Source of the DNA: an uncultured virus (IMG/VR IMGVR_UViG_3300007734_000752)
Lineage: Duplodnaviria; Heunggongvirae; Uroviricota; Caudoviricetes
Length of the DNA: 64,000 bases
Strand: one strand, 5' to 3'
IMG/VR virus record: IMGVR_UViG_3300007734_000752
Shown: positions 395 through 42,206 of the stretch, in pieces
How the letters are laid out: every line of letters starts with the position of its first letter
Position numbering within the stretch: the stretch's first letter is position 1
Made by a program: the position numbers and the translations under genes
The notes under the pieces: model-generated
The model's database searches: none
What the model was told of the DNA's origin: nothing
Seen by the model: the letters and a program-made list of their open reading frames with translations, nothing else

Positions 395-2308
395 GTGATC
401 TGGCTTGATTTTGAGACACGATCACGCTGCGACTTACCTAGTCGTGGCGTTTATAATTACGTGCAGGATGCCAGCACCGAGGTGCTGTGCATGTCCTACG
501 CCGTTGACGATGGCGAGGTGGCTACTTGGTTGCCGGGTATGCCGTTCCCCGACATTGCTGGCCATCAAATCATGGCCCACAACGCCGCTTTCGAGCGGCT
601 TGTCTTTTGGTACGTCCTCTGCCCGGACGTAGGTGTGCCTGAACCGAAGCTGGCGCAGTTCTACTGCACCGCCGCGCAGGCCCGCGCTAACTGCCTGCCC
701 GGCAGTCTGGAGGACGTAGGCCGCGCCGTGTCGAGCAAGATGAAGAAAGACCACCGTGGTTCAGCATTGATACGGCTGCTGTCTGTCCCGCGCAAGGACG
801 GCACCTTCAACGACGACCCGACACTGATGGCCGAATTTTTTGCCTATTGCGAACAGGACGTGCGCGCCATGCGCGAGATCAGTAAGGCCATGCGCCCGCT
901 GTCCGACGACGAACTGGCCGACTACCATGCAAATGAAAAAATTAACGACCGTGGCGTGCTGGTGGACACTGACCTGTGCCGGGCCGCGATAGGCTACGCC
1001 GAGGCCGAGCTAATCGAGATACAAGAGATCGTGCGCGAGGTGTCGAAGGGCGAGCTTGCCAGCGTGCGGTCGCCCCGAATGCGACAGTGGGTGCAGGATA
1101 GGGTAGGCCCCGAGGCCGTGAAGCTGATGTGGACAGGCGAGAAGTACAGCATCGACAAGACCGTGCGCGCCAACCTGCTGACACTTGGCCCCGACGAGGT
1201 GCCCGCTGACGTTGCCGAGGTTATCCAGTGCGCCGATGACCTGTGGGCGTCGAGTGTGGCTAAGTTCAAGCGCCTGGCTGACCTGGCCGACGTGGAGGAC
1301 AACCGGGTGCGCGGCGCGTTCGTGTTCGCTGGTGGCTCGGCTACTGGTAGGGCAGCCAGCTACGGCGCGCAGGTGCATAACTTCACCCGCAAGACCGCCC
1401 GCGACCCCGCCGCCGTGCGGCAGGCGATGGTGCGGGGGCATCAAATTGTGCCATCATATGGCAAGCGCGTCACCGACGTTCTAAAGGGGATGCTACGCCC
1501 CGCGCTTGTCCCGGCGCCGGGTAAGGTGTTCGTCGTGGCGGACTGGTCGAGCATCGAGGGCCGCGTCAATCCGTGGCTGTCCAACTGCCTTGCAGGGGAA
1601 ACCAAGCTCGACGTGTTCCGCTCGGGCCGTGACCCGTACAAGGTCAACGCGATGGCGCTCTTTGGTGTGGCTTACGATGACGTGACGGGCGACCAGCGCC
1701 AGGTCGGCAAGGTGCAGGAACTCGCGCTGGGCTTCCTCGGTGGCGAAGGCTCGTTCGACACCTTTGGCCGTGTCTACGGTGTGCAGGTCGAGAATATCCC
1801 ACGCGCTATACGTGTCTGGCGCACGGCCAACCCTTGGGCGATGCGGCATGGGCAGGCGCTTGAAAACGCCTACACGTTCGCCATGCGAAACGTCGGGCGC
1901 GAGTTCCCCGCGGGCCGAGTAGTCTATATGTTCGACGGTCAGCACCTATGGTATGCGCTACCGTCAGGCCGGGTGCTGTGCTACCCGTTCGCCAAACTCG
2001 ATGGCGATGGAGTATCCTATCTCAAAGCGTCGTGGAAGCCCGCCGCCGATGCGACCGAGTGGCCGCGCGCACGTCTGTGGCGTGGTCTTGCCGTTGAGAA
2101 TGTAACCCAAGCCGTTGCTAATGACATACTGCGCCATGCGCTGCGCCGGCTGGAGGACGTGGTGCTGCACATACATGATGAAATTATAGTTGAGTGCGTG
2201 GACGACCGTGCTGCCGAGGTCGAGCGCGTGATGTGCGAACCGCCCGAGTGGGCTGTTGGGCTGCCGTTGGCAGCAGAGGTAAAGATAATGACGAGGTACG
2301 GAAAATAA
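395..2308 (+). CDS. Family A DNA polymerase (APSE-like)
   Basis: Exo I motif LDFET, HNAAFER, ATGR, motif A DWSSIEGR, motif B RQVGKVQELALGF, motif C HIHDE. Confidence 0.93.
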   Translation: MIWLDFETRSRCDLPSRGVYNYVQDASTEVLCMSYAVDDGEVATWLPGMPFPDIAGHQIMAHNAAFERLVFWYVLCPDVGVPEPKLAQFYCTAAQARANCLPGSLEDVGRAVSSKMKKDHRGSALIRLLSVPRKDGTFNDDPTLMAEFFAYCEQDVRAMREISKAMRPLSDDELADYHANEKINDRGVLVDTDLCRAAIGYAEAELIEIQEIVREVSKGELASVRSPRMRQWVQDRVGPEAVKLMWTGEKYSIDKTVRANLLTLGPDEVPADVAEVIQCADDLWASSVAKFKRLADLADVEDNRVRGAFVFAGGSATGRAASYGAQVHNFTRKTARDPAAVRQAMVRGHQIVPSYGKRVTDVLKGMLRPALVPAPGKVFVVADWSSIEGRVNPWLSNCLAGETKLDVFRSGRDPYKVNAMALFGVAYDDVTGDQRQVGKVQELALGFLGGEGSFDTFGRVYGVQVENIPRAIRVWRTANPWAMRHGQALENAYTFAMRNVGREFPAGRVVYMFDGQHLWYALPSGRVLCYPFAKLDGDGVSYLKASWKPAADATEWPRARLWRGLAVENVTQAVANDILRHALRRLEDVVLHIHDEIIVECVDDRAAEVERVMCEPPEWAVGLPLAAEVKIMTRYGK

Positions 2309-2370
2309 AAACGGCCCACGGTGGAGAAACCGTGAGCCGCCAAAGTCAACCGAAACAGGAGCATCATAGC

Positions 2371-4617
2371 ATGGATTTTATTGAGTTCGTTACAAGCCTT
2401 GCCCCCGAGGGCGAGACTGTTCTTTTTGTACAACAAAAAACAAAAGCGTGGATCCCGCAACTGCCGGGTATGCCCCGCGCCGAGGGCAAGGCGTGGTATG
2501 TCAGCAGCGGTTCGTTCATTCTTGACCGCATGACCGATGGCCTGTCGGCCAGCACCAGCAACTGCACTCACGTCACGTTCATCGCCGTGGACGATGTAGG
2601 CACCAAGAGCAAGGTGCCGCCGCTGCCCCCGACATGGATTATCGAGACATCACCCGGCAACTACCAATGGGCCTGGGTGCTGAGTGAGCAGGTGCCGGTG
2701 GCCGTGGCTGGCGCTGCCGAGCGCGCCTTTGCCGAGGCTGGTTACACCGACGGGGGCGCCATTAACGCGGTTCGCAACTGGCGTATACCCGGTTCGGTCA
2801 ACATCAAGCCGGGCCGCAACCGCTTCGTGTCTGTCCTGACCGAGTTCCACCCCGAGCGCGAGTTCACGCTTGAGCAGATATGCGCCGCCTTGGGCGTGAC
2901 GCCCGCCGAGGCCGACACCGCCACCGCGCGCCGTGTGGCGCTCGACGACGACGGCACCGACGACGTGCTGGCGTGGTTGTCCGAGGCAGGGCACCTGACC
3001 GCGCAGGGCAACGCCGCTGGCTGGTGGGGCGTGGTCTGTCCCAACAGCGAGGCCCACACCACTGGCGAGATTGAAGGCCGCTACATGCCGGTCAACCGCG
3101 CCTACACCTGTCTCCACGCCCACTGCGCCGAGTGGAACAGCGCCCGCTTTCTGGCTTGGGTGGCCGAGCAGGGGGGCCCGGCGCACGCTATGGGCCTGCG
3201 CGAGGAGTTGCTCGCCGCCGTGATGGCCACCACGTTGGCCAAGCTAACGCCGGGCGACATGTTTGGCAAGGATTCCGACGCAACCGCCGCCATTGCCTTA
3301 GTCGAGCGCCGCGAACTGGGCCGGGTCGAGAAGGCCGGGTGGTATGAGCGGTTCGCCTACATCCAAGACGACGAGTCGTACTTCGACCTGACCGACCGCC
3401 GCGAGGTGAGTCGTTCGACGTTTAACGCGCTGTACAGGCATATCAGTTGCAAGTCGATACACAACGAGCGCAAGGTCGAGGCATCGGTTTGCTTCGACGA
3501 GAACAGGCAAGACAAGGGCGCGCCCGCATTGGTCGGCATCACCTACGCCGCCGGCGAGACTGTCCTTTGCCACCGTGACGGTGACGTGTACGGCAACCGA
3601 TGGCGTGACGCCCGCCAGCCCGCCGGGGCCGGTGACGTGGCGCCGTGGCTCGCCCACTGCGCCGCCTTGATACCTATTGAAACCGAGCGCGAGCATATTT
3701 TCGACGTGATGGCGCACAAGTATCAGCACCCGAATACCAAGATCAACCACGCCGTGCTGCACGGCGGTGACGAGGGTTGCGGCAAGGATACCCTGTGGGC
3801 GCCGATGCTGTGGGCCGTTTGTGGGCCGTCGCTCCGCAACCGTGGCATCCTCGACAACGACACCCTTGGCTCGCAGTGGGGCTACCAGCTTGAGGCCGAG
3901 ATTATTATTTTGAACGAACTGAAGGAACCCGACGCCCGCGAGCGCCGGGCCCTGGCCAACAAGTTGAAGCCGATCATCGCCGCGCCGCCCGACATGATAC
4001 CGATCAATCGCAAGGGGCTGCACCCGTATCAGATGGTCAACCGCTGTTTCGTGCTGGCGTTCAGCAACGACCCGGTGCCGATTAGCTTGGCTACGCAAGA
4101 CCGCCGCTGGTTTTGCGTGTGGTCAGCCGCGCCCAGGATGCACCCGCCCACCGCCGCCCGCTTGTGGGCATGGTATCGGGCTGGTGGCTTCGCCGCCGTG
4201 ACGGGCTGGCTCGCCCGCCGGGATGTGACCGCGTTCAACCCCGCAGCCGCGCCCGCCATGACCGAGTTCAAGACCAACCTAATCGAGCATGGGATGAGCA
4301 TGGCCGAGTCGTACCTTGTCGAAATGCTACGCACCCGCCAGGGTGATTTTGCCTTGGGCGTGATCGGCTCGCCGTTCCACCTGCTTTGCGACCGCCTCAC
4401 GGGTAGCGCGCCCGGTGGCGTCCGTGTGCCACAGCAGGCATTGCTACACGCGCTTAAAGAAGCCGGCTGGCAAGACATGGGTCGCCTTGGCGCCGTGGGC
4501 CTGGGCACCAAAAAGCACGTTTTCGCCGCGCCGGACATGATGCACTTAAACAAGTCAGAGCTTAGGCGCATGGTCGAAACCGCGCCGCCGGCAGTGTCCG
4601 TCCGGCTGGTGAAATGA
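2371..4617 (+). CDS. Primase (RepB/AEP-like) fused to a P-loop helicase
   Basis: AGGAG RBS before ATG at 2371; DDVG, IETSPGNYQW and WRIPGSVN primase motifs; Cys/His zinc region; Walker A GDEGCGKDT; Walker B IIILNE. Confidence 0.85.
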   Translation: MDFIEFVTSLAPEGETVLFVQQKTKAWIPQLPGMPRAEGKAWYVSSGSFILDRMTDGLSASTSNCTHVTFIAVDDVGTKSKVPPLPPTWIIETSPGNYQWAWVLSEQVPVAVAGAAERAFAEAGYTDGGAINAVRNWRIPGSVNIKPGRNRFVSVLTEFHPEREFTLEQICAALGVTPAEADTATARRVALDDDGTDDVLAWLSEAGHLTAQGNAAGWWGVVCPNSEAHTTGEIEGRYMPVNRAYTCLHAHCAEWNSARFLAWVAEQGGPAHAMGLREELLAAVMATTLAKLTPGDMFGKDSDATAAIALVERRELGRVEKAGWYERFAYIQDDESYFDLTDRREVSRSTFNALYRHISCKSIHNERKVEASVCFDENRQDKGAPALVGITYAAGETVLCHRDGDVYGNRWRDARQPAGAGDVAPWLAHCAALIPIETEREHIFDVMAHKYQHPNTKINHAVLHGGDEGCGKDTLWAPMLWAVCGPSLRNRGILDNDTLGSQWGYQLEAEIIILNELKEPDARERRALANKLKPIIAAPPDMIPINRKGLHPYQMVNRCFVLAFSNDPVPISLATQDRRWFCVWSAAPRMHPPTAARLWAWYRAGGFAAVTGWLARRDVTAFNPAAAPAMTEFKTNLIEHGMSMAESYLVEMLRTRQGDFALGVIGSPFHLLCDRLTGSAPGGVRVPQQALLHALKEAGWQDMGRLGAVGLGTKKHVFAAPDMMHLNKSELRRMVETAPPAVSVRLVK

Positions 4618-4697: not shown

Positions 4698-5282
4698 TCA
4701 TTCGCGCGCCCAGGCGCAATCAGCCACGGCTAAGGCGCTCGAACGCATCGGCATGACCACGCCCACCACGTCCGCAGTCAGATAGACCAGGCCGCTACCG
4801 TCGCCGCCAGGGAGCAGGTCGAACAGCCCCTTTTCGGAACCTAAGTCCTCCGCCGCCCGCTTGAACCGCACCAGCAAGTCAGGATCGAAGAACGACGGCT
4901 TGCCGTCCGGCGCCGCCGGTATCACTTTGCGATACATGGGGAACGTGCCCGCCACCGGCACGAACACCAGCGCCTCGCCGGTGGCGCGCGTCAGCCGGCA
5001 CTCACGCTCGCCGGGTATCAGGATAATCGGCAGGTTTTTGTTGCCCTTCCAGGCCAGCGCCGCCTTGACCACGTCCACCGGGATAATGCCCGTCCAGGTG
5101 TCCGTGTCCGGCTCGCCCGCCGCCCGCACCACCAGCAGCGCGTGGCCATCTGTGGCAACCAGGCGCACGCCCGCCGGCGACGCCTCGACCAGTACGCCGT
5201 GCAGCGTGAGCCGCTGGTCTTTCGGATCTGTGGCCGCGAACCGCGCCGCCGCCTTCAATTTGTTGCGGTCGAGCAGGATCAT
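4698..5282 (-). CDS. DNA polymerase III beta-clamp-like protein (partial clamp)
   Basis: LHGVLVE...LVATDGHAL...FPMYRKVIP resemble DnaN middle-domain motifs. Confidence 0.7.
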   Translation of the reverse strand: MILLDRNKLKAAARFAATDPKDQRLTLHGVLVEASPAGVRLVATDGHALLVVRAAGEPDTDTWTGIIPVDVVKAALAWKGNKNLPIILIPGERECRLTRATGEALVFVPVAGTFPMYRKVIPAAPDGKPSFFDPDLLVRFKRAAEDLGSEKGLFDLLPGGDGSGLVYLTADVVGVVMPMRSSALAVADCAWARE

Positions 5283-5617
5283 GGTTGCACCTGCTTAATC
5301 GTGGCGTTGAACTTCTCACTGCCGATACGCTCACATAGCGCCTCGAGCTGGGCCATCGCCGCCGCCCGCGCCTGCTTGCTGTTTAGGCCCTTGCTGGAGC
5401 AAGGTAACCCCTTGACCGTGCCCGTAACCCGGCACACCTTTGCGCCGATTACCGGGTGAGATACCGCCCACTCACGATACGCCGCCGGCGCCGCGCCCGC
5501 CTCACGGTGCAGGGTGAGCCGGTGCGTGGTGGCGCCGCAAATAAAAATAATGGGCGTATAGGGTACTGGCGAGCCGAAAGGCTGCCCCTTGCTGTCGTGC
5601 ATTGTGTACGTGTGCAT
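5279..5617 (-). CDS. Hypothetical early protein
   Basis: GAGG RBS, coupled to the next gene. Confidence 0.6.
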   Translation of the reverse strand: MHTYTMHDSKGQPFGSPVPYTPIIFICGATTHRLTLHREAGAAPAAYREWAVSHPVIGAKVCRVTGTVKGLPCSSKGLNSKQARAAAMAQLEALCERIGSEKFNATIKQVQP

Positions 5618-5699
5618 AGTGTAGTGTCCTCTAGTTTATTAATGACAGGCAAGCGCCCGCCCGGTGGCGCCCGGGTTACCAGGCGCCGCCAGCCGGGTA

Positions 5700-5906
5700 C
5701 TAATCTTCGAGCGCCGCTGTGGCGCGCTCGTGCCAGCTCACGTGCGTGTCGGTTTTATCCTGGTCAATCAAATCAACCGCATCGCGTATGATATTGCGTA
5801 ACTCGCAAGCCTGATTTTCCAGATCGATCACTTGCGCCAGCGCCGCCGCCAGGGCGGTATTGCCGCTGGCGTACGCCGCGCGTTCCTGTTCTTCGACTGT
5901 TAACAT
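5700..5906 (-). CDS. Hypothetical early protein
   Basis: ORF in the leftward operon. Confidence 0.55.
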   Translation of the reverse strand: MLTVEEQERAAYASGNTALAAALAQVIDLENQACELRNIIRDAVDLIDQDKTDTHVSWHERATAALED

Positions 5907-5908
5907 GA

Positions 5909-6025
5909 CTATTCCCCCAGCAATAGTTTTTTGAGCGCGCTAACAGTGCGCCCACTGCGCGCGGCTAACTCCGCCAGCGTAATATTGGTGCTATCGAATA
6001 ACGCAATTATTTCCTGATCGGTCAT
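5909..6025 (-). CDS. 38-aa HTH-like small protein (not in ORF track)
   Basis: Hand translation MTDQEIIALFDSTNITLAELAARSGRTVSALKKLLLGE; AAGGGG RBS. Confidence 0.45.
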   Translation of the reverse strand: MTDQEIIALFDSTNITLAELAARSGRTVSALKKLLLGE

Positions 6026-6114
6026 AATGTGAACCCCTTAAATTGATATTAACAGTGCTGCGATAATGAGCGCGCCGCATAGCGCGCCCATGGCCAGCCA
6101 TGCGATGGTATCGT

Positions 6115-6381
6115 TCATTCGCAGGCAACCAGGTAGGCGCTCATGCGGTTATACAAGTCGCGCTTTGTAACGTGGCCGCAACTAAACACGTCGCGCACGC
6201 CGCCGCTCTCGTTCATGGTTTGGTGTAAGCACACGCCGCCGTACGCGCCGCTCAAGTGATAATTGCCTTTTTGCCCTATCAGTTTATCGTTGACGTTCTC
6301 GTAGGGCTTTGCCGGTGTTTTTTTCGCGTTATTGATGCGCGCGCACATGAATTCCAATTGTTTTTGTGTTGTCCGTTCCAT
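6115..6381 (-). CDS. Hypothetical early protein
   Basis: GAGG RBS, operon position. Confidence 0.6.
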   Translation of the reverse strand: MERTTQKQLEFMCARINNAKKTPAKPYENVNDKLIGQKGNYHLSGAYGGVCLHQTMNESGGVRDVFSCGHVTKRDLYNRMSAYLVACE

Positions 6382-6453
6382 TTTATTGTCCTCTAATGTA
6401 GGTTATAGGCCAGTGTTGACCCGATAGCACACTGTCGCCAGTGTGCTATCAGA

Positions 6454-6939
6454 CTACGCTGCGACCGCTACCGGATTAGCCCAATCGGCTACCGTTTGCT
6501 CGGCAGCGTCACCGTACCACACAATATCGCCACCAGTGGCGCCAATGTAGCGACCTTTCGCATTACGGAAAAACACAGTTTTAGCGCCTAATGCTTTAGC
6601 TACTCTGTTAAGCCATTGGCCGTATGATTTTGTTTCGCCGTCCAGGCTTTGGATTTTAGCGAGCTTGCGATCAATAGGCGCAAGTGTCGCCAGCGCTTTT
6701 TTGGCCAGTGCTAAATCAATGCGATCATGGCATTCGATTGTCACTGCCATGCCGTACATGCCAGACCAGTGATAGCCGCGATTCGCTTGCGAGTGTAGGC
6801 GCACGTCGTGGAGCGGGTGATCGTAGCGGTCAACGGGTTCAGGTTGGCCGCTGGCGTTTAGCTCAGGCTTGCAAGCGTATGCCTTGATGTGGGCAAAATC
6901 ACCGTCGAATTCAGTATAGATACAGAGTGCGGTTTCCAT
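6454..6939 (-). CDS. Hypothetical early protein
   Basis: AGGAG RBS, operon position. Confidence 0.6.
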   Translation of the reverse strand: METALCIYTEFDGDFAHIKAYACKPELNASGQPEPVDRYDHPLHDVRLHSQANRGYHWSGMYGMAVTIECHDRIDLALAKKALATLAPIDRKLAKIQSLDGETKSYGQWLNRVAKALGAKTVFFRNAKGRYIGATGGDIVWYGDAAEQTVADWANPVAVAA

Positions 6940-6994
6940 AATTTACTCTCCTGAAGTGTATAAACATGCGCGCGGCTGCGTGCATGGGTGCTGC

Positions 6995-7288
6995 TTAGTC
7001 TTTTGAAACGATCGCGTCGCGCAGCTCGCGGACGATGGCGCTAAAAATATAAGCGCCAGTATAGTTGCCGTAATCGTAATTGTGTTGAGTTTGTTGGCGC
7101 AAATCGCGTACGCGCGCGCCGGGGGTTAACGCAATAAAACCATCAATTCCACGATCATAATCAACAAACACAATGCCGTAGCGCCTTTTTTCGTATTCAT
7201 CCATTGCGTCAACAATGGTGGCCGATATGCGCTGGCCGTGCTCAGTGTAGTGCGCGCCAGTATTCCAAACTGCTATTTTCTCGCTCAT
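6995..7288 (-). CDS. Hypothetical first early protein (likely start MSEKIAV)
   Basis: AGGAG RBS upstream of the ATG at 7288. Confidence 0.6.
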   Translation of the reverse strand: MSEKIAVWNTGAHYTEHGQRISATIVDAMDEYEKRRYGIVFVDYDRGIDGFIALTPGARVRDLRQQTQHNYDYGNYTGAYIFSAIVRELRDAIVSKD

Positions 7289-7331
7289 GCTGTCTCTCCT
7301 GGTGGGTTGTGTTTCGCTTTGCTGCGCGCCC

Positions 7332-7359
7332 ACTATATCACGGATTTTCGAAAATGCAA
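7332..7359 (-). promoter_or_regulatory. Sigma70-type early promoter
   Basis: Minus strand TTGCAT-16 nt-TATAGT with extended -10 TG. The palindrome ATTTTCGAAAAT (7344-7355) overlaps the spacer and -35. Confidence 0.6.
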
Positions 7360-7586
7360 GTCTTTTCTTTACGCATGGCAATATTACCCACGATTGGCAA
7401 TTTGACATTTGCGCATCGTCATAAGGGAAACATGGCAAATTGGCTATATTGTCATTCTAGTAATCACTTCAAAATTGTAGATGTTGTATAGTCCACACTG
7501 TAGTTGTGGGGCGGCTGCGACTTTCCGGCGGTGACAATACCGCCTAGAATGCCCATGTCGACCATGTCGACGTCGACCAGGCGCGC

Positions 7587-7869
7587 GTTAGTTAGTGCCC
7601 ACTACCGCCAGCTGCAAAGTAAGCGCCCACTAACTGGACTGGTAGTTAGTGCTTACTAGCTTGTAAGTTAATGCTCACTAACCTGGAAGTAAGTGCTTGC
7701 TAATGCTGCAATGCAGCATAAGTAAGCGCTCACTAACTTGTGTGTAAGCGCCCACTAACTTTGAAGTAAGCGCCCACTAACATAGATGTGAGTGCTTACT
7801 AGCTTGTAAGTTAGCGCTTACTAACTTGGAGGTGAGTGCTTACTAGCTTGGAAGTGAGTGCCCACTAAC
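7587..7869. repeat. Tandem array of 12 quasi-palindromic sites, mostly 22-bp period, resembling SlmA-binding sites
   Basis: Cores (e.g. GTAAGCGCTCAC, GTGAGTGCTTAC) start at 7591, 7619, 7645, 7667, 7689, 7722, 7744, 7766, 7788, 7810, 7832, 7854. Confidence 0.9.
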
Positions 7870-8034
7870 ATGGGGGGCGCCAGGGCCTTGCGCTGGCCGT
7901 GTCGGCCACGGCATCGTTTGTAAACAATTTTTATTTTTAAAAGTATCTTGCAAGCACTTAGCTTGCGCCCGTACATCTGATAGGTCAAATAGGCCAAATG
8001 GACAACACGTTTAAGTCCGTGGTATAACGCAGCC

Positions 8035-8529
8035 ATGTTCCAGTCACTCCCACTGGCTATACGACCTAGAGTTCAGGCGACAGAGGCGCGTCTGGATGCT
8101 ATATACAAAGCTGCATCTATGGGGTTAAAAGGAGATTCACTGGCACTGGCGTCAGGGATGCTGCCTTTAGAGTACCGGCAATTGTGCCAATTTGACCCAT
8201 TGGCCGAACTAGCGGCGCAGAAGGGCAAAGCGGACAACGAACTGCGCGCAGCGCAACGCTTGAACGAGGCGTCAGATCAGGGCGACGCCAAGGCCAGCCT
8301 GGCGATACTTACCCACGTTCACGGTTGGCAACAAACATCCAACGTCAACATAAATGTCGAGCAGCGGATTAGTATCATATCCGCGCTAGAAGAAGCCAAG
8401 TCAAGGGTGATCGAAGGTAGTGCTACAATAGACGAAACCCCCGAACGCATCAACGGTCGAGGGTTTCTAACCAATAACGATGAGGACACATCGCATGGCT
8501 ACCAACATTCTAACGCAAGCGCGGCTTAA
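8035..8529 (+). CDS. Terminase small subunit (putative)
   Basis: Position upstream of terL; HTH-like N-terminus; GDAKASLAIL..HGW helical pattern. Confidence 0.7.
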   Translation: MFQSLPLAIRPRVQATEARLDAIYKAASMGLKGDSLALASGMLPLEYRQLCQFDPLAELAAQKGKADNELRAAQRLNEASDQGDAKASLAILTHVHGWQQTSNVNINVEQRISIISALEEAKSRVIEGSATIDETPERINGRGFLTNNDEDTSHGYQHSNASAA

Positions 8530-9013
8530 AGAACTCTTGCGCTACGACCCGGCAACGGGGCTATTTACGTAATTGCAAAACAAAGGCACACAGCGCAAAA
8601 ACGCTATTGCCGGTTCGCGGCACACTACCGGTTACATCAATATTAGTATTGACAGCAAACTACACCGAGCGCATCGGCTTGTGTGGCTGTATGAGTATGG
8701 TTGTTTTCCCGACGGAGAGATTGACCACATAAACCGCGTTCCGTTTGACAACCGACGCGTTAATATACGAGTAGTGACGCGCAACCAAAACACGCAAAAT
8801 AGCGGCTTAGGGCGTAATAACACCTCGGGCCACCGAGGTATTGGCTGGAATAAACAGCAACAAAAATGGCGGGCACGAATAGGTATTGACGGAAAAAACA
8901 CCTATTTAGGGCGGTTTGATACGTTTGAAGATGCTGTGTCTGCGTATACTGACGCTGCAAGTATTTACCACGCATATAGGCTGCAATGCAAAAGCCAATC
9001 TACTCCACAATAG
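8495..9013 (+). pseudogene. HNH/AP2 homing endonuclease with an in-frame TAA at 8570-8572
   Basis: MATNILTQARLKELLRYDPATGLFT*LQNKG... continues in frame into AHRLVW, IDHINRVPFDNRRVN, NTSGHRGI and KWRARI..YLGRF. Confidence 0.8.
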
Positions 9014-10509
9014 ACGAAGAAAAACTGATGGTGGAGTTGTGGTCGCCCGCGCTGGCGGACGACCCCGAGGCGTTCGTGCTGTTTGCCTTCCCGTGGGGCC
9101 AGAAGAACACCCCGCTGCACAAGTTCAAAGGCCCGCGCAAGTGGCAGCGCGAAGTCCTGCGCGACATCAAGCAACATATAGCTAACAACAAAGGCAAGGT
9201 GCAGATGGACACCCTGCGAGAGGCGGTGTCATCTGGCCGGGGTATTGGCAAGTCAGCCTTAGTGTCTTGGTTGGTGCTGTGGATGCTGACCACCCGCATT
9301 GGCGGCAGCGTCATCATTAGCGCCAACTCGGAGAACCAGTTGCGCTCGGTAACCTGGGCCGAGCTGACCAAGTGGTCGGCTATGTCTATCAACAACCACT
9401 GGTTTGAGATCAGCGCAACTAAGCTGGTGCCGGCGCAGTGGCTGTGCGAGCTGGTCGAGCGGGACTTGAAAAAAGGCACACGTTATTGGGCGGCAGAGGG
9501 CAAGCTGTGGTCGGCGGAGAACCCCGACAGCTACGCCGGCGTGCATAACCAAGACGGCATGATGCTGATATTTGACGAGTCATCAGGCATCCCCAACCCC
9601 ATATGGGAGGTCGGCGCCGGGTTCTTTACTGAGAACACGCCGGACAGGTACTGGTTTGCCTTTAGCAACCCGCGCCGTAACGAGGGGTACTTTTTCGAGT
9701 GTTTTCACGCCAAACGGGCGTTTTGGAACACCCGCAGCGTGGACGCAAGGACGGTGGAGGACACCGACAAGCAGGTTTACGAGCAGATCATTGCCGAATA
9801 TGGCGAAGATAGCCCGCAGGCCAAGGTCGAGGTGTATGGTGAGTTCCCCGACGCGGGCGAGGATCAGTTCATCAAGCCCATGCTGGTCGAGGACGCCATG
9901 CAGCGGGCGCGATGGAAGGACACAACTGCGCCTATAGTATTAGGTATCGACCCGGCCAGAGGCGGCGCTGACTCTACGGTGCTGGTGGTGCGCCAGGGGC
10001 GGGACATTGTGGCCATCAAACGCTACTCGGGCGAGGACACCATGACCATAGTCGGGCGGGTGATCGACGCAATCGAGGAATATAAGCCTATTTTGTCGGT
10101 TATTGACGAAGGCGGGCTGGGGTACGGCATACTTGACAGGCTCACAGAGCAGCGTTATAAGGTGCGAGGGGTAAACTTTGGCTGGAAAGCCAAAAACTCT
10201 ATTATGTGGGGCAACAAGCGGGCTGAAATGTGGGGAACCATGAAGGACTGGCTGAAAACAGCGTCCGTTCCAGTTGATCGGCAGTTAAAAGCTGACCTGG
10301 TTGGCCCCATGAAGAAGCCTAACAGCAGCGGTACGATTTTCCTTGAAGGAAAGAAGGAAATGCGTAGTAGAGGGTTAGCTTCACCCGACGCCGCCGACGC
10401 GCTGGCGGTTACTTTTGCCTTCCCCGTTGCGCACCGCGAGTATCGGGAGCCAACCCGACGCACCGCGTCGTCTCACGCCAGCGTAACCAACTCTTGGATG
10501 GGTAGCTAG
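8986..10509 (+). CDS. terL: Terminase large subunit
   Basis: Walker A SGRGIGKS, Walker B LIFDE, SNP motif, nuclease LGIDPA and SPDAADAL. Confidence 0.93.
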   Translation: MQKPIYSTIDEEKLMVELWSPALADDPEAFVLFAFPWGQKNTPLHKFKGPRKWQREVLRDIKQHIANNKGKVQMDTLREAVSSGRGIGKSALVSWLVLWMLTTRIGGSVIISANSENQLRSVTWAELTKWSAMSINNHWFEISATKLVPAQWLCELVERDLKKGTRYWAAEGKLWSAENPDSYAGVHNQDGMMLIFDESSGIPNPIWEVGAGFFTENTPDRYWFAFSNPRRNEGYFFECFHAKRAFWNTRSVDARTVEDTDKQVYEQIIAEYGEDSPQAKVEVYGEFPDAGEDQFIKPMLVEDAMQRARWKDTTAPIVLGIDPARGGADSTVLVVRQGRDIVAIKRYSGEDTMTIVGRVIDAIEEYKPILSVIDEGGLGYGILDRLTEQRYKVRGVNFGWKAKNSIMWGNKRAEMWGTMKDWLKTASVPVDRQLKADLVGPMKKPNSSGTIFLEGKKEMRSRGLASPDAADALAVTFAFPVAHREYREPTRRTASSHASVTNSWMGS

Positions 10510-11067: not shown

Positions 11068-11404
11068 TCCGAAATTCGTTGATATTTCAAAGTTTACGCC
11101 TAACGAACAGGCGGCTTTGCAATATCATCGCAACCATTTGACCGGCGGCACGGGGTTAAAGAACGCGGATGGTTCGACCACTACGTTCATGGGTTCTGTT
11201 GTGGATACGCCAAGCGGCGGCGCAATGATCCTCCCAACGTATTGGCACGGTGAAATTAGGGACGTACCGCAAGCGATGAAGTTTGCAACCAAAAGCGGCG
11301 TAACCTTTCCAGAGTACAAGTCGGTGAAAGACGCTCTGGCGGCGGAACAACGGATGCATAAAATTATGGAACAAGACGTTGAATCCTACGGGGCGGCTAA
11401 ATAG
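11060..11404 (+). CDS. Hypothetical protein
   Basis: Fills the gap and is coupled to the portal gene. Confidence 0.55.
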   Translation: MADPKFVDISKFTPNEQAALQYHRNHLTGGTGLKNADGSTTTFMGSVVDTPSGGAMILPTYWHGEIRDVPQAMKFATKSGVTFPEYKSVKDALAAEQRMHKIMEQDVESYGAAK

Positions 11405-13617
11405 TGGCATATCAAGACACAGGCATCAACGAAGCAGGCGCAGTCTCGTCAGGCGGCACCAAGTCTGACCGTGACAACGGCGAGATGCTGGCGACCATGC
11501 GTACCCGCCTGACGATGGCGATCTCCGCGTATTCGGATTCCCGTGAGGACGAACTGGACGACCTGCGCTTTCGTGCTGCAAGCCCCGACAACCAGTGGCA
11601 GTGGCCTGCTGATGTGCTGGCGACACGCGGCTCGGTGCAGGGACAGACGATCAACGCTCGGCCATGCCTGACTATTAACAAGCTGCCGCAGCATGTGCTG
11701 CAAGTGACCAACGACCAGCGGCAGAACCGGCCTTCGGGTAAGGTGATACCGGCTGACGACAAGGCCGACATTGAGGTTGCCGAGATATTCAACGGTTTGG
11801 TGCGGCACATTGAGTATATCTCGGATGCTGACGTAGCTTATGACACCGCCTGCGACAACCAGGTAACGTTTGGTGAAGGTTACTTCCGCATCCTGACCGA
11901 GTATTGCGACGACAGCACTTTTGAGCAAGACCTGCGGATTGGGCGTATTCGTGACAGTTTCAGCGTGTACATGGATCCGACAATTCAAGACCCCTGCGGG
12001 TCGGATGCTGAGTGGTGCTTCATCAATCAAGAAATCACCAAAGACGCGTACGAGCGTGAGTTTCCCAACGCGGCAACGCTGTCCAGCCTGCAATACGGCG
12101 TAGGCGACGGGCAACTGAACGCGTGGATTAACCAAGACACGGTGAGGATTGCCGAGTATTTCTACATCAAGCACGAAGCCAAGAAACTCAATCAATACCC
12201 CGGTGGAATGACCGCAATGGCGGGGTCACCGGAGGCAAAGCAAATTGAAATGATGGGTTTGGCTGCAACAAAAACCCGTGATGTAGACGTTCGGACGGTT
12301 AAATGGTGCAAAACCAACGGCTTTGAGGTGCTGGAAGAACGCGATTGGGCGGGCAAATACATCCCCGTAATCCGCGTAATTGGCAACGAATTTGAGATTG
12401 ATGGCCGGATGTACGTTAGCGGGTTGGTGCGGAATGCCAAAGACGCGCAGCGCATGTATAACTATTGGGTCAGCCAGGAAGCCGAGATGCTGGCGCTGGC
12501 ACCCAAAGCACCGTTTATTGGCTACGGCGGTCAGTTTGAGGGCTACGAGCAGCAATGGAAAACGGCCAACATCAACAACTGGCCGTACCTTGAAGTCAAT
12601 CCAGATGTGACCGATGGGCAAGGCGGCGTGCTGCCGTTGCCGCAACGCTCACAGCCGCCGATGGCGTCCAGCGGCCTGCTGCAAGCCAAAGCAGGCGCCG
12701 CCGATGACATTAAGAGCGCAACCGGGCAGTACGATAGCAGTCTTGGCGCCACCAGCAACGAACGCTCGGGGCGGGCTATTCTGGCGCGGGAAAAGCAGTC
12801 GGACACCGGCACATACCACTACGTTGACAACTTGGCGCGCGCTATTCGCTACGCGACCCGGCAACTGGTGGATCTGATTCCAAAGATATACGACACGCAA
12901 CGCATTGCGCGGATTATCGGCATGGACGGTGAAACTGACCAAGCCATGATCGACCCGATGCAACCGATGCCGGTTAAGAAGATTCAGAACGAGCAAGGCA
13001 TCGTTATCAAGAAGATTTACAACCCCAATGTCGGCAAGTACGACGTTGCGGTGACTGTTGGCCCGAGCTACATGACCAAGCGGCAGGAATCGCTCGACGC
13101 CATGAGCCAACTGCTGCAAGGCAACCCGCAACTGTGGGCTGTGGCCGGCGACCTGTTCATCAAGCACATGGACTGGCCGGGCGCGCAAGAGATGGCAGCG
13201 CGGTTTGCCAAGACTATCGACCCCAAGCTGCTGTCTGACGAGGACGATCCGGCGCTGCAAGCGGCTAACCAGCAGATGCAAGCGATGGGCCAGGAAATGC
13301 AGCAGATGCACCAGATGCTACAAAACGTCAGCCAGTCGATGGAAGCGCAGACGTTGAAGGTTAAAGAGTTTGATAGCCAAGTCAAAGCATACGACGCGGA
13401 GACTAAGCGTATCAGCGCGGTGCAGGCCGGAATGTCGCCAGAGCAGATTCAAGACATCGTTATGGGCACCGTCCACGGCATGATTACGTCGGGCGATCTG
13501 ATTAACGAGATGCCGGGGCGTGACCAAGACATGATGCCGCAAGACATGATGCAGAACATGCAACAGATGCCGCCGGATATGGAACAAATGCCGCCACCGC
13601 AAGGGATGCCACAGTGA
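11404..13617 (+). CDS. Portal protein (P22-like)
   Basis: RPCLTINKL, AKDAQRMYNYW, SGRAI and a Gln/Met-rich C-terminal barrel; lies after terL. Confidence 0.9.
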   Translation: MAYQDTGINEAGAVSSGGTKSDRDNGEMLATMRTRLTMAISAYSDSREDELDDLRFRAASPDNQWQWPADVLATRGSVQGQTINARPCLTINKLPQHVLQVTNDQRQNRPSGKVIPADDKADIEVAEIFNGLVRHIEYISDADVAYDTACDNQVTFGEGYFRILTEYCDDSTFEQDLRIGRIRDSFSVYMDPTIQDPCGSDAEWCFINQEITKDAYEREFPNAATLSSLQYGVGDGQLNAWINQDTVRIAEYFYIKHEAKKLNQYPGGMTAMAGSPEAKQIEMMGLAATKTRDVDVRTVKWCKTNGFEVLEERDWAGKYIPVIRVIGNEFEIDGRMYVSGLVRNAKDAQRMYNYWVSQEAEMLALAPKAPFIGYGGQFEGYEQQWKTANINNWPYLEVNPDVTDGQGGVLPLPQRSQPPMASSGLLQAKAGAADDIKSATGQYDSSLGATSNERSGRAILAREKQSDTGTYHYVDNLARAIRYATRQLVDLIPKIYDTQRIARIIGMDGETDQAMIDPMQPMPVKKIQNEQGIVIKKIYNPNVGKYDVAVTVGPSYMTKRQESLDAMSQLLQGNPQLWAVAGDLFIKHMDWPGAQEMAARFAKTIDPKLLSDEDDPALQAANQQMQAMGQEMQQMHQMLQNVSQSMEAQTLKVKEFDSQVKAYDAETKRISAVQAGMSPEQIQDIVMGTVHGMITSGDLINEMPGRDQDMMPQDMMQNMQQMPPDMEQMPPPQGMPQ

Positions 13618-15408: not shown

Positions 15409-16617
15409 GTGTCTAATTCATTATTGACAATCGATATGATAACAAGGAAGTGCCTTGAAATTCTCGAGAACAACCTGGTTATTTCGCGCAATTGCAACAA
15501 AGAGTACGACGACAGCTTCGCTGTTGAAGGTGCCAAGATCGGCTCGACCCTGCGGATTCGTCTGCCGGATCGTGCCTTGGTGACTGACGGGGCCGCCCTG
15601 CAAGTTCAGGACGACAACGAGCAATACACCACGCTGACGGTATCAAGCCAGAAGCACATTGGCATCAACTTCACCAGCGCCGAACTGACGATGCAGTTGG
15701 ATGACTTTGCGGAACGTGTTCTGAAGCCGCGTATCAGCCAATTGGCGTCGAGTGTAGATGCTGACGTTGCTAACGCCTACAAGTCTATTTTCAACACCGT
15801 AGGCACTCCCGGCACCACGCCTGCCACCGCTCTGGTTCTGTTGCAAGCGCAGCAGAAGCTGAACGAATCGGCTACGCCTATGTCGCCGCGCTACGCAACC
15901 GTAAACCCTGCCGCTAACGCTGGCCTGGTAAACGGCTTGAGTGGTTTCTTCAACCCGGCTGGCACGATTTCCCGCCAGTTCAAGACCGGCATGATGGGTG
16001 AGGGTGTTCTCGGCTACGACGAAATGAACATGTCGCAGTCGATTGTCAACCACACCACGGGCAACTTCCCGGCTTCGCCTATCGTTGCCACCACTGTGTC
16101 AACGCAAGGGCAAGCAACGCTGGACATTAGCTTTAGCAGCGGCACCAAAACTGTTAAACAAGGCGATATATTTACCATTGCCGCCGTGTATGCGGTTAAC
16201 CCGCAAACCCGTCTTAGCACTGGTAGCTTGCAACAGTTTGTTGTGACTGCGGATAACAGCGTTACGTCCAACACCACGATGACCCTTGCTATTTCACCGG
16301 CCATCTACACCGCAACAAACGCGCTGGCAACGGTGGATAGTTTCCCCGCCTCGTCTGCGGTTATTACGTTTGTCGGAACCGCGTCTACCGTGTATCCGCA
16401 AAACTTGGTTTATCACAAGAATGCAATCACGCTGGCTACGGCTGACCTCTTGCTTCCGCAAGGTGTCGATATGGCTTCGCGTCAAGTGCATAACGGTATC
16501 TCGATGCGTATCGTGCGTCAGTACGATATTAACAACGACCGTATGCCTTGCCGTGTCGATGTGCTGTATGGTTTTAATACCATTCGCCCACCGATGGCCT
16601 GCCGGATGTGGGGCTAA
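15409..16617 (+). CDS. Major capsid protein (P22 gp5-like)
   Basis: KIGSTLRIRLP and RVDVLYG motifs; position. Confidence 0.9.
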   Translation: MSNSLLTIDMITRKCLEILENNLVISRNCNKEYDDSFAVEGAKIGSTLRIRLPDRALVTDGAALQVQDDNEQYTTLTVSSQKHIGINFTSAELTMQLDDFAERVLKPRISQLASSVDADVANAYKSIFNTVGTPGTTPATALVLLQAQQKLNESATPMSPRYATVNPAANAGLVNGLSGFFNPAGTISRQFKTGMMGEGVLGYDEMNMSQSIVNHTTGNFPASPIVATTVSTQGQATLDISFSSGTKTVKQGDIFTIAAVYAVNPQTRLSTGSLQQFVVTADNSVTSNTTMTLAISPAIYTATNALATVDSFPASSAVITFVGTASTVYPQNLVYHKNAITLATADLLLPQGVDMASRQVHNGISMRIVRQYDINNDRMPCRVDVLYGFNTIRPPMACRMWG

Positions 16618-38325: not shown

Positions 38326-38407
38326 TAAGTCATTGAGTTATAAGGTGATTGCAATAAAGCCCTTTATAATTAAGGACTTACGTCACTTATCCACAGACTT
38401 ATCCACA
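38326..38407. promoter_or_regulatory. Two perfect DnaA boxes plus two IHF-like sites
   Basis: TTATCCACA at 38387 and 38399; 12/13 matches to WATCAANNNNTTR at 38326-38338 (-) and 38368-38380 (+). Confidence 0.6.
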
Positions 38408-38694
38408 GGTTATAGAGCTGAATACATCAGCCCCTTGTGGTCAGCTACCCCCATCTTCCCTGGCTGAGTAGTGTGTATGGGGAGGGAAAAGAATTCTTTT
38501 ATATATTTTATATATAACAACTTATAACTACTCTTATAGTTTATAAACAAGGGGAGGTATATAACTACTATAGTAGTAATAATAATACAACACTATAAAA
38601 ACACTACTACAGTACATATACTATATATAACTACTATATATAGTACTACCCTAGAGTCTCAATCCCGTAAGGGCCTAAATAGAGAAGATACAAT

Positions 38695-40679: not shown

Positions 40680-42206
40680 ATGGCTGAAAGCCGTTTATCC
40701 GCAGAGGTTCTTGAAGGGTTTATCTGTAGTGTCCTGAGAAGGAACTTTGATGATCCTGCGGATAACGCTGAGTTTCACAGAGAAATCTGGCAATACGTTT
40801 GTTCTCCAAGCTCTAAAGTAGCCATTGCAGCACCGCGTAACCACGCCAAAAGCACCGTAGTAACCCACGCCTATACCCTAGCGGCTGTCCTATTCAGAGA
40901 ACAGACTTACGTAATTATTGTCTCTGATACTGTTGGTCAATCCGTACAGTTCCTCGGAGACATCAAAAAGGAACTGTTAGAGAATGAAGATCTTAGAAAT
41001 TTGTTTGGTGTCAGAGAGTTCCTTAAAGACACTGAAGACGACCTTATTTGCAGCATGGATGACGGGCACTTGTTTCGTATTCAAGCTAAGGGGTCTGAAC
41101 AAAAACTAAGGGGCTTGAAGTGGAAGAACCGTAGGCCGGGGCTTATCGTTGGGGACGACATGGAAAACGATGAGATTGTTATGAACCGAGACAGGCGGTT
41201 GAAGTTTAAACGCTGGTTCTATGGAGCTTTGCTTCCAGCCCTGTCTGACAAAGGTAAGATTAGGTTAGTAGGCACTATTCTTCATCTTGACAGTCTTCTT
41301 GAGAACCTGATGCCTAGCAGTCTTCTTAAGACTATTTCAGGAGGCCACAAGAGCCTTATTCGAGAAGACTTAAAGGAGTACACAGACATAAGGCTGTCTT
41401 GGAAGTCTATCAAGTACCGAGCACACACAGACGACTACAGCAAACTTCTCTGGCCCCAAAAGAAATCTGCCAAAGAATTTAGAGCTATGAAGGAAGACTA
41501 CGCTAGACAGGGACTGTCTGATGTCTACAGCCAGGAAATGTTTAATGTCCCTGTAGATGAAGCAGACACCTTTTTTAAAAAGCAAGACTTTGTAGCTATG
41601 ACTGGAGACCACAAAAAGAAAAAACTTTTGTATTACATCACTTGTGATTTAGCAGTATCTCAGTCTCAGAAGGCTGACTATTCAGCTTTTTGTGTTGCAG
41701 GGATGGACGATGAGAACAAACTTCATCTAGTCCATGTTGTAAAAGAGAGACTTGACTCTTTACAAATAGTGGATACTATGCTTGCGTTACAGAGGATCTA
41801 TAAGCCGGTACTCTTTGGAATCGAAAAGGGTGTCATTCAGAAGTCGATAGGCCCATATCTTAATGAGGCAATGCAAGAGCGCAACGAGTACATCAGCATA
41901 GCTCTACTAGCTCCGTCTGCTGACAAACTTACCCGCGCTAGAAGCATACAAGCCAGAATGAGAGCTGGGGCTGTAAGATTTGACAAAGACTCTGATTGGT
42001 ACCAGTCTTTTGAGGATGAATTACTTAGGTTTCCACGTGATAGGCACGATGACCAGGTAGATGCGTGGGCATACTTGGGATTGATGCTTGATAAAATGTG
42101 GGAGACCCCCTCCGAAAAAGAAGACGAGGACGAAGAGTACCGCCTTATGGTTCGTAAGCTTCAGTCTGACGATATGGTGGGCAGAAGCCCCGTTACCGGA
42201 TACTAG
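40680..42206 (+). CDS. terL: Terminase large subunit
   Basis: APRNHAKST, IVGDDME, VGT, DLA..ADYSA, HDDQVDA. Confidence 0.92.
   Translation: MAESRLSAEVLEGFICSVLRRNFDDPADNAEFHREIWQYVCSPSSKVAIAAPRNHAKSTVVTHAYTLAAVLFREQTYVIIVSDTVGQSVQFLGDIKKELLENEDLRNLFGVREFLKDTEDDLICSMDDGHLFRIQAKGSEQKLRGLKWKNRRPGLIVGDDMENDEIVMNRDRRLKFKRWFYGALLPALSDKGKIRLVGTILHLDSLLENLMPSSLLKTISGGHKSLIREDLKEYTDIRLSWKSIKYRAHTDDYSKLLWPQKKSAKEFRAMKEDYARQGLSDVYSQEMFNVPVDEADTFFKKQDFVAMTGDHKKKKLLYYITCDLAVSQSQKADYSAFCVAGMDDENKLHLVHVVKERLDSLQIVDTMLALQRIYKPVLFGIEKGVIQKSIGPYLNEAMQERNEYISIALLAPSADKLTRARSIQARMRAGAVRFDKDSDWYQSFEDELLRFPRDRHDDQVDAWAYLGLMLDKMWETPSEKEDEDEEYRLMVRKLQSDDMVGRSPVTGY

Follow-up and report, generated by a model that had tools for sequence, protein, structure and literature searches.

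The 64,000-nucleotide stretch of uncultured-virus DNA IMGVR_UViG_3300007734_000752 (IMG/VR), referred to here as the window, carries at positions 7587-7869 (283 bp) an array of 12 same-strand copies of a 20-bp quasi-palindrome, which is found nowhere else in the window and resembles the binding sites of SlmA, the bacterial nucleoid-occlusion factor of the TetR family. The window is made up of two different phages joined at ~24 kb and is not one genome. Its segment A (bases 1 to ~24,000, 50-63% G+C) is part of a podophage; the array phage is an uncultured lytic podophage, and a 98.9%-identical strain (G004) supplies the genome part missing from the window. The array is located in a 600-bp gap separating a block of small leftward genes (4698-7438) from the packaging genes, and the stretch upstream of the small terminase gene is the largest non-coding stretch of these phage genomes. 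To its right, the putative small terminase gene (terS, 8035-8529, + strand, 164 residues) starts 166 bp past the last unit and is followed by an HNH endonuclease gene (8573-9013, + strand; PF13392, phrog_99) and by the large terminase gene (terL, 8986-10509, + strand; phrog_2, PF03237), which is 69.5% identical at the nucleotide level to terL of phage DSL-LC05. The name terS was given in a preliminary description of the stretch made from its letters alone. It agrees with the position ahead of terL and with the C-terminal part of the product, which weakly matches the terS annotated in DSL-LC05, but the assignment is putative only, no Pfam or PHROG family being matched. This protein is kept from residue 1 in relatives of every array type.

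The pattern GTNAGYGCYYACTA, with at most one mismatch, has 13 matches in the window, all inside 7591-7867; 12 are on the + strand and the thirteenth is the reverse reading of the most symmetric copy. In dinucleotide shuffles 0.50 matches are expected and none of 100 shuffles reaches 13, and the copy number, coordinates and spacings of the preliminary description are reproduced exactly. The repeat consists of the 20-bp site and a 2-bp spacer, e.g. GGAAGTGAGTGCCCACTAAC, for which Tandem Repeats Finder reports a period of 22, with high information content at defined positions of the units and low information content in the linker. Units 1-5 form a left sub-array (7587-7704, + strand; 20-mers at 7587, 7615, 7641, 7663 and 7685) of irregular core start-to-start spacing (28, 26, 22 and 22 bp), units 6-12 a right sub-array (7718-7869, + strand; 20-mers at 7718, 7740, 7762, 7784, 7806, 7828 and 7850) with a strict 22-bp period throughout (six times 22 bp). 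Between the two sub-arrays a perfect palindrome, ATGCTGCA-A-TGCAGCAT (= ATGCTGCAATGCAGCAT, 7703-7719), is interposed, which divides the array into five plus seven units and accounts for the single spacing of 33 bp. Palindromes of the same class, TGYTGCA-N-TGCARCA, also adjoin the arrays of sister phages with other array types and of unrelated phages (L191, L184).

The consensus of the SlmA-binding site (SBS) given in the preliminary description is indeed in print, both as the 12-mer GTGAGTACTCAC (PMC3020112) and as the oligonucleotide SBScons, AAGTAAGTGAGCGCTCACTTACGT (PMC4423959). According to the published rule, G, T, A and G are strongly preferred at positions 1, 2, 4 and 5 of each half-site, position 3 is tolerant and position 6 is a pyrimidine (PMC3020112). 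The units were scored against the inner 20-mer of SBScons. All 12 units are identical to the SBScons inner 20-mer in 13-17 of 20 positions (mean 14.8), the left sub-array in 13-16, and the two copies singled out earlier, 7718-7737 and 7806-7825, do reach 17/20 each. For comparison, the validated natural E. coli sites SBS17 and SBS12 (PMC4423959) score 15/20, and outside the array seven positions of the window score at least 13/20, none of them above 14. The strict core GTRAGYRCTYAC is fitted fully by three of the 12 cores (12-bp cores starting at 7722, 7788 and 7832), with one mismatch by six and with two mismatches by three; the whole E. coli K-12 chromosome contains five full matches.

The likeness extends to the distribution of conserved and free positions. 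In the inner-left half-site, G, T and A are present at positions 1, 2 and 4 of all units and G at position 5 of 11 of them, position 3 being free, in agreement with the published mutational analysis of SlmA (PMC3020112). The outer-right half-site CTAAC is nearly invariant across the units and the outer-left one is degenerate. The array thus displays the hallmarks of SBS in the 12-bp core as well as in the extended 20-bp site with outer half-sites, i.e. the footprint of a dimer of dimers. Chromosomal SBS of E. coli, V. cholerae and K. pneumoniae share with it the 12-bp core, the 20-bp palindrome with four GTNAG-type half-sites and identical conserved and free positions. They differ in arrangement: those of E. 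coli are single and scattered, 24-52 per chromosome (PMC4726725) with five strict cores, whereas the phage DNA holds 12 abutting sites within 283 bp and the element does not encode their reader. Judged by its sequence, the array is a close-packed row of twelve putative TetR-type operators of the SBS class. The chance of matches of 14/16 to 17/20 to one known site is small, but with ~250,000 windows surveyed a coincidence is possible.

Similar arrays are present in other phage genomes. A 16-bp pair of window-type units was found in 26 IMG/VR stretches, including G001, G002 and a quite different phage, G003, and the 20-bp pattern GTWAGTGAGYRCTYACTWAC in at least 123 uncultured viral stretches of IMG/VR, with a few expected by chance according to our own estimate. 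The full 20-bp palindromes of G002, such as GTTAGTGAGTACTCACTAAC, include the published 12-mer without a mismatch. Eighty of the GTWAGTGAGYRCTYACTWAC loci were fetched, and 43 of these contain at least three units; 46 are without a match to the window-type terS, 15 of them annotated. A further 135 neighbouring units, chosen with at most six mismatches, are not search hits themselves; in these, positions 1, 2, 4 and 5 are conserved in all four half-sites, position 3 is free and the two central positions are pyrimidine plus purine in 99-100%, which is the published SlmA rule. In six whole array-bearing genomes one cluster each is found, one genome having a single extra site. The sites of other phages are spaced by 22 to ~30 bp and the helical phasing read from the window array at first is therefore not conserved; the 22-bp phasing is simply close packing.

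These six genomes come from different phage groups (40-58% G+C) and no protein family is common to all of them. The maintenance of a 20-bp palindrome in phages sharing no gene points to a reader supplied by the host, likely a host TetR-type protein as far as the sequences tell. A TetR operator with a repressor encoded by the element itself was rejected, since no TetR gene is present on the element: no TetR_N domain was detected among the 24 open reading frames (ORFs) of segment A, which bears out the earlier statement on this point, nor in the G004 record, nor in any of ten whole records with SBS-like arrays, five of them at least 96% complete. Similarly, no convincing match to either of two SlmA proteins was obtained by tblastn in 80 loci and 10 genomes. 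When the array was compared with GenBank phages and PLSDB plasmids by BLAST, a method weak for 20-bp sites, no match was returned. A search of 596 Gb of bacterial genomes for the exact 20-mer GTTAGTGAGYRCTCACTAAC gave 32 contigs, mostly actinomycete, with one copy each; proteobacteria are not enriched among them, a result which is uninformative on the host.

A different picture is obtained at the same position of closely related phages. Relatives of terL in IMG/VR number hundreds, of which 80 loci at 80-98% identity were compared. Every one with enough upstream sequence has a repeat array at the spot occupied by the array of the window, with units that are unrelated among relatives: CCACCTGGCC, CCGGCCTGT, GGCCTGCT, CCGATGGA, GACCGGCT, CATGACCCAC, TTGCCTAGGCAATGG and others. 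Close relatives differ by more than ten unit types that are unrelated to each other, in part as simple as runs of CCTG, and seven of the 80 loci have the window-type unit. The whole genomes G006-G008 are homologous to the window up to ~4.3-5.7 kb and again from 7869-7872 on, directly past the last unit. The G-run and GC hairpins of the flank that follows are conserved, as are an AT-rich tract and the promoter region of terS. The type of array does not follow phage phylogeny. The array of G006 is unrelated despite terS being 84% and primase 92% identical to those of the window; G001 and G002 are only 66-73% nucleotide-identical to the window, yet have its motif.

The arrays also leave traces in the assemblies. 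The "direct terminal repeats" assigned by IMG/VR to G007 (127 bp) and G008 (117 bp) (records of L007 and L009) consist largely of array units, and in several further contigs the end is located at most a few hundred bases upstream of terS, which suggests breaks or overlaps of assembly at the arrays and not true ends.

Other host-read words are seen at this spot in sister phages. In loci L007/G007, L008/G006, L013, L015 and L023 the E. coli-type Chi octamer, GCTGGTGG or GCCGGTGG, is formed by tandem 7-bp repeats; two to seven copies are present per locus, on the + strand only (19 versus 0 over the five loci). These runs may protect the pac DNA end against RecBCD. A Chi reading of the window's own array was discarded, with no Chi-like octamer in the 900 bp upstream of terS. 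Clusters of DnaA boxes adjoin the arrays of several relatives (L025, L051, L084, L155 and L101/L106/L090). L025 has six boxes (at most one mismatch) in ~220 bp (5020-5235), L101 and L106 have one perfect box, TTATCCACA, each, and in L084 and L155 the boxes lie among SBS-like units. At L184 (~2200-2560), in an unrelated phage group, SBS-like units ahead of a phrog_15-like terminase gene alternate with palindromes TGCACCAAATTGGTGCA, which match the consensus of NtrC enhancer sites.

One of the bacterial matches to GTTAGTGAGYRCTCACTAAC gives a view of a possible host. The match lies on a contig from a phage of the window's group (69% identity in terL), which is binned in a beta-proteobacterial metagenome-assembled genome (MAG), G011, and has units such as GTAAGTGAGTGCTCACTAAC (18/20 to SBScons, manual count) interleaved with DnaA-box-like words. 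The MAG encodes SlmA (NF007015, 273.7 bits versus a curated cut-off of 120; TetR_N and SlmA-like_C domains), which is 46% identical to E. coli SlmA and has an identical recognition helix, VSEAALYRHF. In the order of G011, SlmA is found above the cut-off in 112 of 151 sampled genomes, a tally that includes one unpublished genome (G038). Among 401 genomes sampled in this order, a close terL relative is present in only one other, G105; this MAG has no SlmA match, and its phage contig carries a GCTGACGC array and no SBS-like unit. The pair agrees with the host-SlmA idea, at one genome against one.

In E. coli, SlmA is present at ~300-400 molecules per cell, binds as a dimer of dimers and acts on FtsZ only when bound to SBS (PMC4117426, PMC4726725). 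In laboratory constructs, namely multicopy SBS plasmids (p2SBSK, two sites) and SBS arrays in the terminus region, active SlmA is displaced; delocalised to plasmid sites it inhibits Z rings, and terminus arrays delay division (PMC4117426, PMC4726725). This effect of delocalised SlmA is the mechanism proposed here for the phage array, which differs from the constructs in that those are man-made and are used with SlmA overproduction. As the phage has no TetR gene, host SlmA is the most likely reader and would occupy the sites with two dimers each. Every copy of the phage genome would offer 12 good sites with room for ~48 SlmA monomers, so that a few replicating copies could capture the few hundred SlmA molecules of the cell off the nucleoid and onto phage DNA. 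DNA-bound SlmA, an active FtsZ antagonist, would then spread through the cytoplasm, and division of the host would be delayed or blocked during infection by DNA alone. Of the earlier proposal along these lines the site likeness is real and has become firmer by the comparison of phages, whereas the division block is something we infer purely. Binding of the array by a host SlmA-type protein is considered rather probable from the sequences. That a trans effect on host division is the main pay-off of the array is put forward tentatively, at less than even confidence. Somewhat more doubtful is the wider reading that phage DNA acting alone as a division inhibitor is one case of interchangeable, host-matched arrays of host-factor sites (SlmA sites, DnaA boxes, Chi-like words) beside packaging genes.

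The units could instead be sites of a phage-encoded protein, namely of TerS (pac site), of the primase or another initiator (iterons) or of a small early regulator (operators), with the likeness to SBS being coincidental. Cos and pac sites classically precede terS, as lambda cosB does, and the array is positioned immediately before the putative terS; similarly, a 22-bp iteron array with a nearby AT-rich tract recalls the plasmid origins of R6K and RK2. Both possibilities had been raised as alternatives in the preliminary description, and both are weakened by comparative data, since neither TerS nor primase covaries with array type; covariation defines a pac site or an iteron, and both readings fail on this point. 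The identity of terS to that of the window is 68-86% in loci with the same array and 67-85% in loci with other arrays, fully overlapping ranges from alignments starting at residue 1. It amounts to 84-85% in L005, L007, L008 and L018, none of which has the window's array (the units of L007 and L008 are unrelated; the upstream sequence of L005 and L018 is limited to 172 and 106 bp), and to only 68-70% in L010, L014, L016 and L022, all of which have its unit. TerS as array reader was rejected on this lack of covariation, the clearest case being L008/G006 with a terS 84% identical over all 164 residues and an unrelated array. The primase as iteron reader was rejected likewise, its C-terminal 498 residues being 92% identical in the same L008/G006. 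No initiator covaries with the array, and upstream of terS an AT-rich tract is present (7918-7945), with no DnaA box (at most one mismatch) in 1300 bp. A private small DNA-binding protein is possible in this phage, as the early module adjoining the array (ORFs 5700-7438) is variable, was not assigned a function by family searches, and has been exchanged together with the array relative to G006-G008. Against this, the leftward neighbours of window-type arrays differ (L003, L004, L010, L014/16, L022, G001) and a shared early-module reader was rejected, none being common to window-type loci alone. The first leftward ORF (6995-7438, - strand, 147 residues) matches no known family and is not common to other window-type loci, its only matches being a 28-residue stretch in L004 and 107 residues in L015, whose array differs; a 68-residue ORF (5700-5906) is common to five window-type loci but is present in other-array loci too. 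In a whole-genome comparison of the window and G004 together with G001, G002, G003 and G005 versus G006-G009, no ORF tracks array type. With the 20-bp motif also occurring beside different terminase families, in genomes without a common protein family, a phage-encoded reader is considered improbable.

Several observations weigh against the proposal that host SlmA reads the array and that division is its target. Five of the 12 units have CCCAC for CTYAC in the inner-right half-site (C replacing T at core position 9), and changes at the half-site A/T position broken in this way impair SlmA binding (PMC3020112). In Dactylosporangium (L130, the one contig examined), GTTAGTGAGYRCTCACTAAC lies between a TetR_N gene and a divergent NmrA-like gene and is therefore the operator of another TetR, so that the motif class is not unique to SlmA. 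The 151 genomes from the order of the candidate host contain no surplus of strict 12-mer cores relative to a reversed control, a test of low power given that E. coli itself has five matches versus two in the control, and 20 inspected chromosomal 12-mer matches lack the extended flanks. Colony formation in E. coli was blocked by multicopy SBS plasmids only with ~4-fold SlmA overproduction (PMC4117426). Sister phages keep quite different units at the same spot, so that any general role of the spot is not specific to SlmA. Finally, a window-type terS starts 94-334 bp past the last unit in 33 of the 80 fetched GTWAGTGAGYRCTYACTWAC loci, and terminase genes of other families directly adjoin the array in 11 of the 15 annotated further loci (phrog_38 with phrog_1482 or phrog_51, a 330-residue phrog_15-like protein, a 454-residue phrog_2 protein). 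Where examined, arrays are thus mostly located just upstream of terminase genes, which points to a role in cis. In that case host SlmA or another TetR-type protein of the host might bind the sites to the benefit of the phage in cis. The protein-coated stretch, next to the packaging start and a possible origin, could have an architectural function, insulate the divergent early and late promoters from each other or switch between them, or mark or shield the pac DNA end, and any effect on division would be secondary. The near-constant position beside terminase genes of several families and the one cluster per genome (six whole genomes, one of them with a single extra site) are in favour of this explanation, as are the features of the relatives' spot, i.e. 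DnaA-box clusters (L025, L051, L084, L101, L155), one-strand runs of Chi-like octamers, G-rich and AT-rich tracts and the conserved palindrome. In addition, a candidate leftward promoter is located 26 bp from the start of the array in the window, and activation of transcription by V. cholerae SlmA is reported in a preprint (10.1101/141812). On the other hand, twelve sites far exceed the need of a promoter switch, and the position may only mark where spare DNA is tolerated, this being the largest non-coding stretch. Binding by a host protein for a benefit in cis is regarded as rather unlikely, yet only a little less likely than a division block, and a function of this kind close to the packaging or origin region is a serious alternative. 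The array might also have no dedicated reader, being a fast-evolving tandem repeat (slippage or recombination) that serves as spacer or structural DNA, or be read by an unrelated host factor. The hypervariability of the spot, with its more than ten unrelated and in part very simple unit types, and the frequent breaking of contigs there fit this explanation. However, the window units are informative at defined positions and the linker is low in information, and a complex 20-bp palindrome kept across phages of 40-58% G+C without shared genes is not expected of spacer drift, which makes the lack of a dedicated reader very improbable.

Apart from the array, the intergenic region contains a number of further elements. 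Directly past the array follow a G-run and GC-rich hairpins (7870-7912, + strand) including a terminator-like stem-loop at 7896-7912; this element is kept in L003, L008 and L025, and the fold of the GC-rich stretch is not significant (z = -1.05). The AT-rich tract ACAATTTTTATTTTTAAAAG (7918-7945), also kept in relatives, might be a DNA-unwinding element or part of the terS promoter region. Leftward sigma-70-like promoter candidates with 9/12 matches each are located at 7534-7561 (- strand), 26 bp from the first unit, and at 7454-7481 (- strand); these are weak, the promoter and terminator scan being not above shuffles (two promoter candidates found versus 1.6 expected). A promoter-like pair TGGACA (18 nt) TATAAC (7990-8037), seen by eye and passed over by the stricter rule of the scan, ends 6 nt before the putative terS ATG; if it is used, the mRNA of the packaging operon would be leaderless or nearly so. 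Four TGGCAAT-type 12-mers are located in the early promoter region and inside the putative terS (7376-7444, 8185-8196), partly as inverted pairs (GGCAATATTGCC in relatives). They are kept across sister phages regardless of array type and a conserved regulator of the phage may use them as its operator. The TGGCAA repeats at 7376-7444 were also considered as a sigma-54 promoter, which was dismissed because their GG-to-GC spacing, counted manually, is unsuitable.

Farther away, segment A encodes a family-A DNA polymerase (395-2308), a primase-helicase (2194-4617), a P22-type portal (11404-13617), a P22-type coat protein (15409-16617) and tail genes. Homing-endonuclease-type genes have entered the packaging region, as exemplified by the HNH gene between the putative terS and terL of the window; some relatives have a protein of 218-220 residues between array and terS (L004 2182-2841, L014 4425-5078, L016, L102), the N-terminus of which resembles a NUMOD4-type motif by eye. 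The phage is present in 20 public runs from seven studies, in all of them as assembled contigs. Segment B (~24 kb onward, ~42% G+C) represents the second phage and encodes T7-type endonuclease I, PolA, a DnaB-like helicase, a Toprim primase, CobT/AAA proteins, GroES, terL (40680-42206), an SU10-type portal and adaptor, holin, endolysin and a protein of more than 1696 residues. It contains no TetR gene (no TetR_N among 35 ORFs) and no SBS-like unit. In a gene-poor part ~2 kb ahead of its terL, two tandem perfect DnaA boxes (ACTTATCCACAG twice) are followed by a G-rich patch and AT-rich 13-bp repeats (38385-38408 and 38558-38642), a layout that looks origin-like and resembles what relatives of segment A have beside their arrays.

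With regard to known systems, the sites and the mechanism proposed for the array are both known, and what is new is their natural setting on an element that does not encode the reader. To our knowledge, the phage tools known to stop host division are all proteins. T7 Gp0.4 is a phage protein inhibitor of FtsZ. Lambda Kil is another (PMC11762379), which presumably shares with the array the goal of stopping host division; in contrast to such inhibitors, the agent here would be DNA that redeploys an inhibitor of the host and not a protein acting on FtsZ. The TetR operator of Dactylosporangium L130 is similar in its 20-bp palindrome class and in the recognition helix type SEA-LY-HF of its TetR, but it occurs singly, flanked by a TetR gene and the divergent target of that gene, whereas the phage has 12 operators and no TetR gene. 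Terminase sites (lambda cosB, P1 pac, SPP1 pac) and iteron origins (R6K, RK2) are arrays of short repeats by terS or by an AT-rich tract; for the phage array the covariation with a cognate TerS or initiator that defines both was looked for and not found. Chi-rich lambdoid phages likewise carry many copies of a DNA word read by the host (PMC12315714), with another word, another host machine (RecBCD) and another effect, and the window is without such a run. In titles and abstracts, with subscription papers and supplements outside the search, no description of SlmA sites on phage DNA was found.

The swaps of array type between near-identical phages suggest that this stretch is a fast-evolving interface with the DNA-binding machinery of the host. 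SBS-like arrays may hint at the host of an uncultured phage, as such sites make sense only in hosts bearing SlmA. If the proposed mechanism is true, it would explain the non-coding repeat arrays which recur near the packaging genes of many uncultured phages, and the redeployment of a host protein by DNA alone would constitute a new class of host takeover that is invisible to gene-based annotation.

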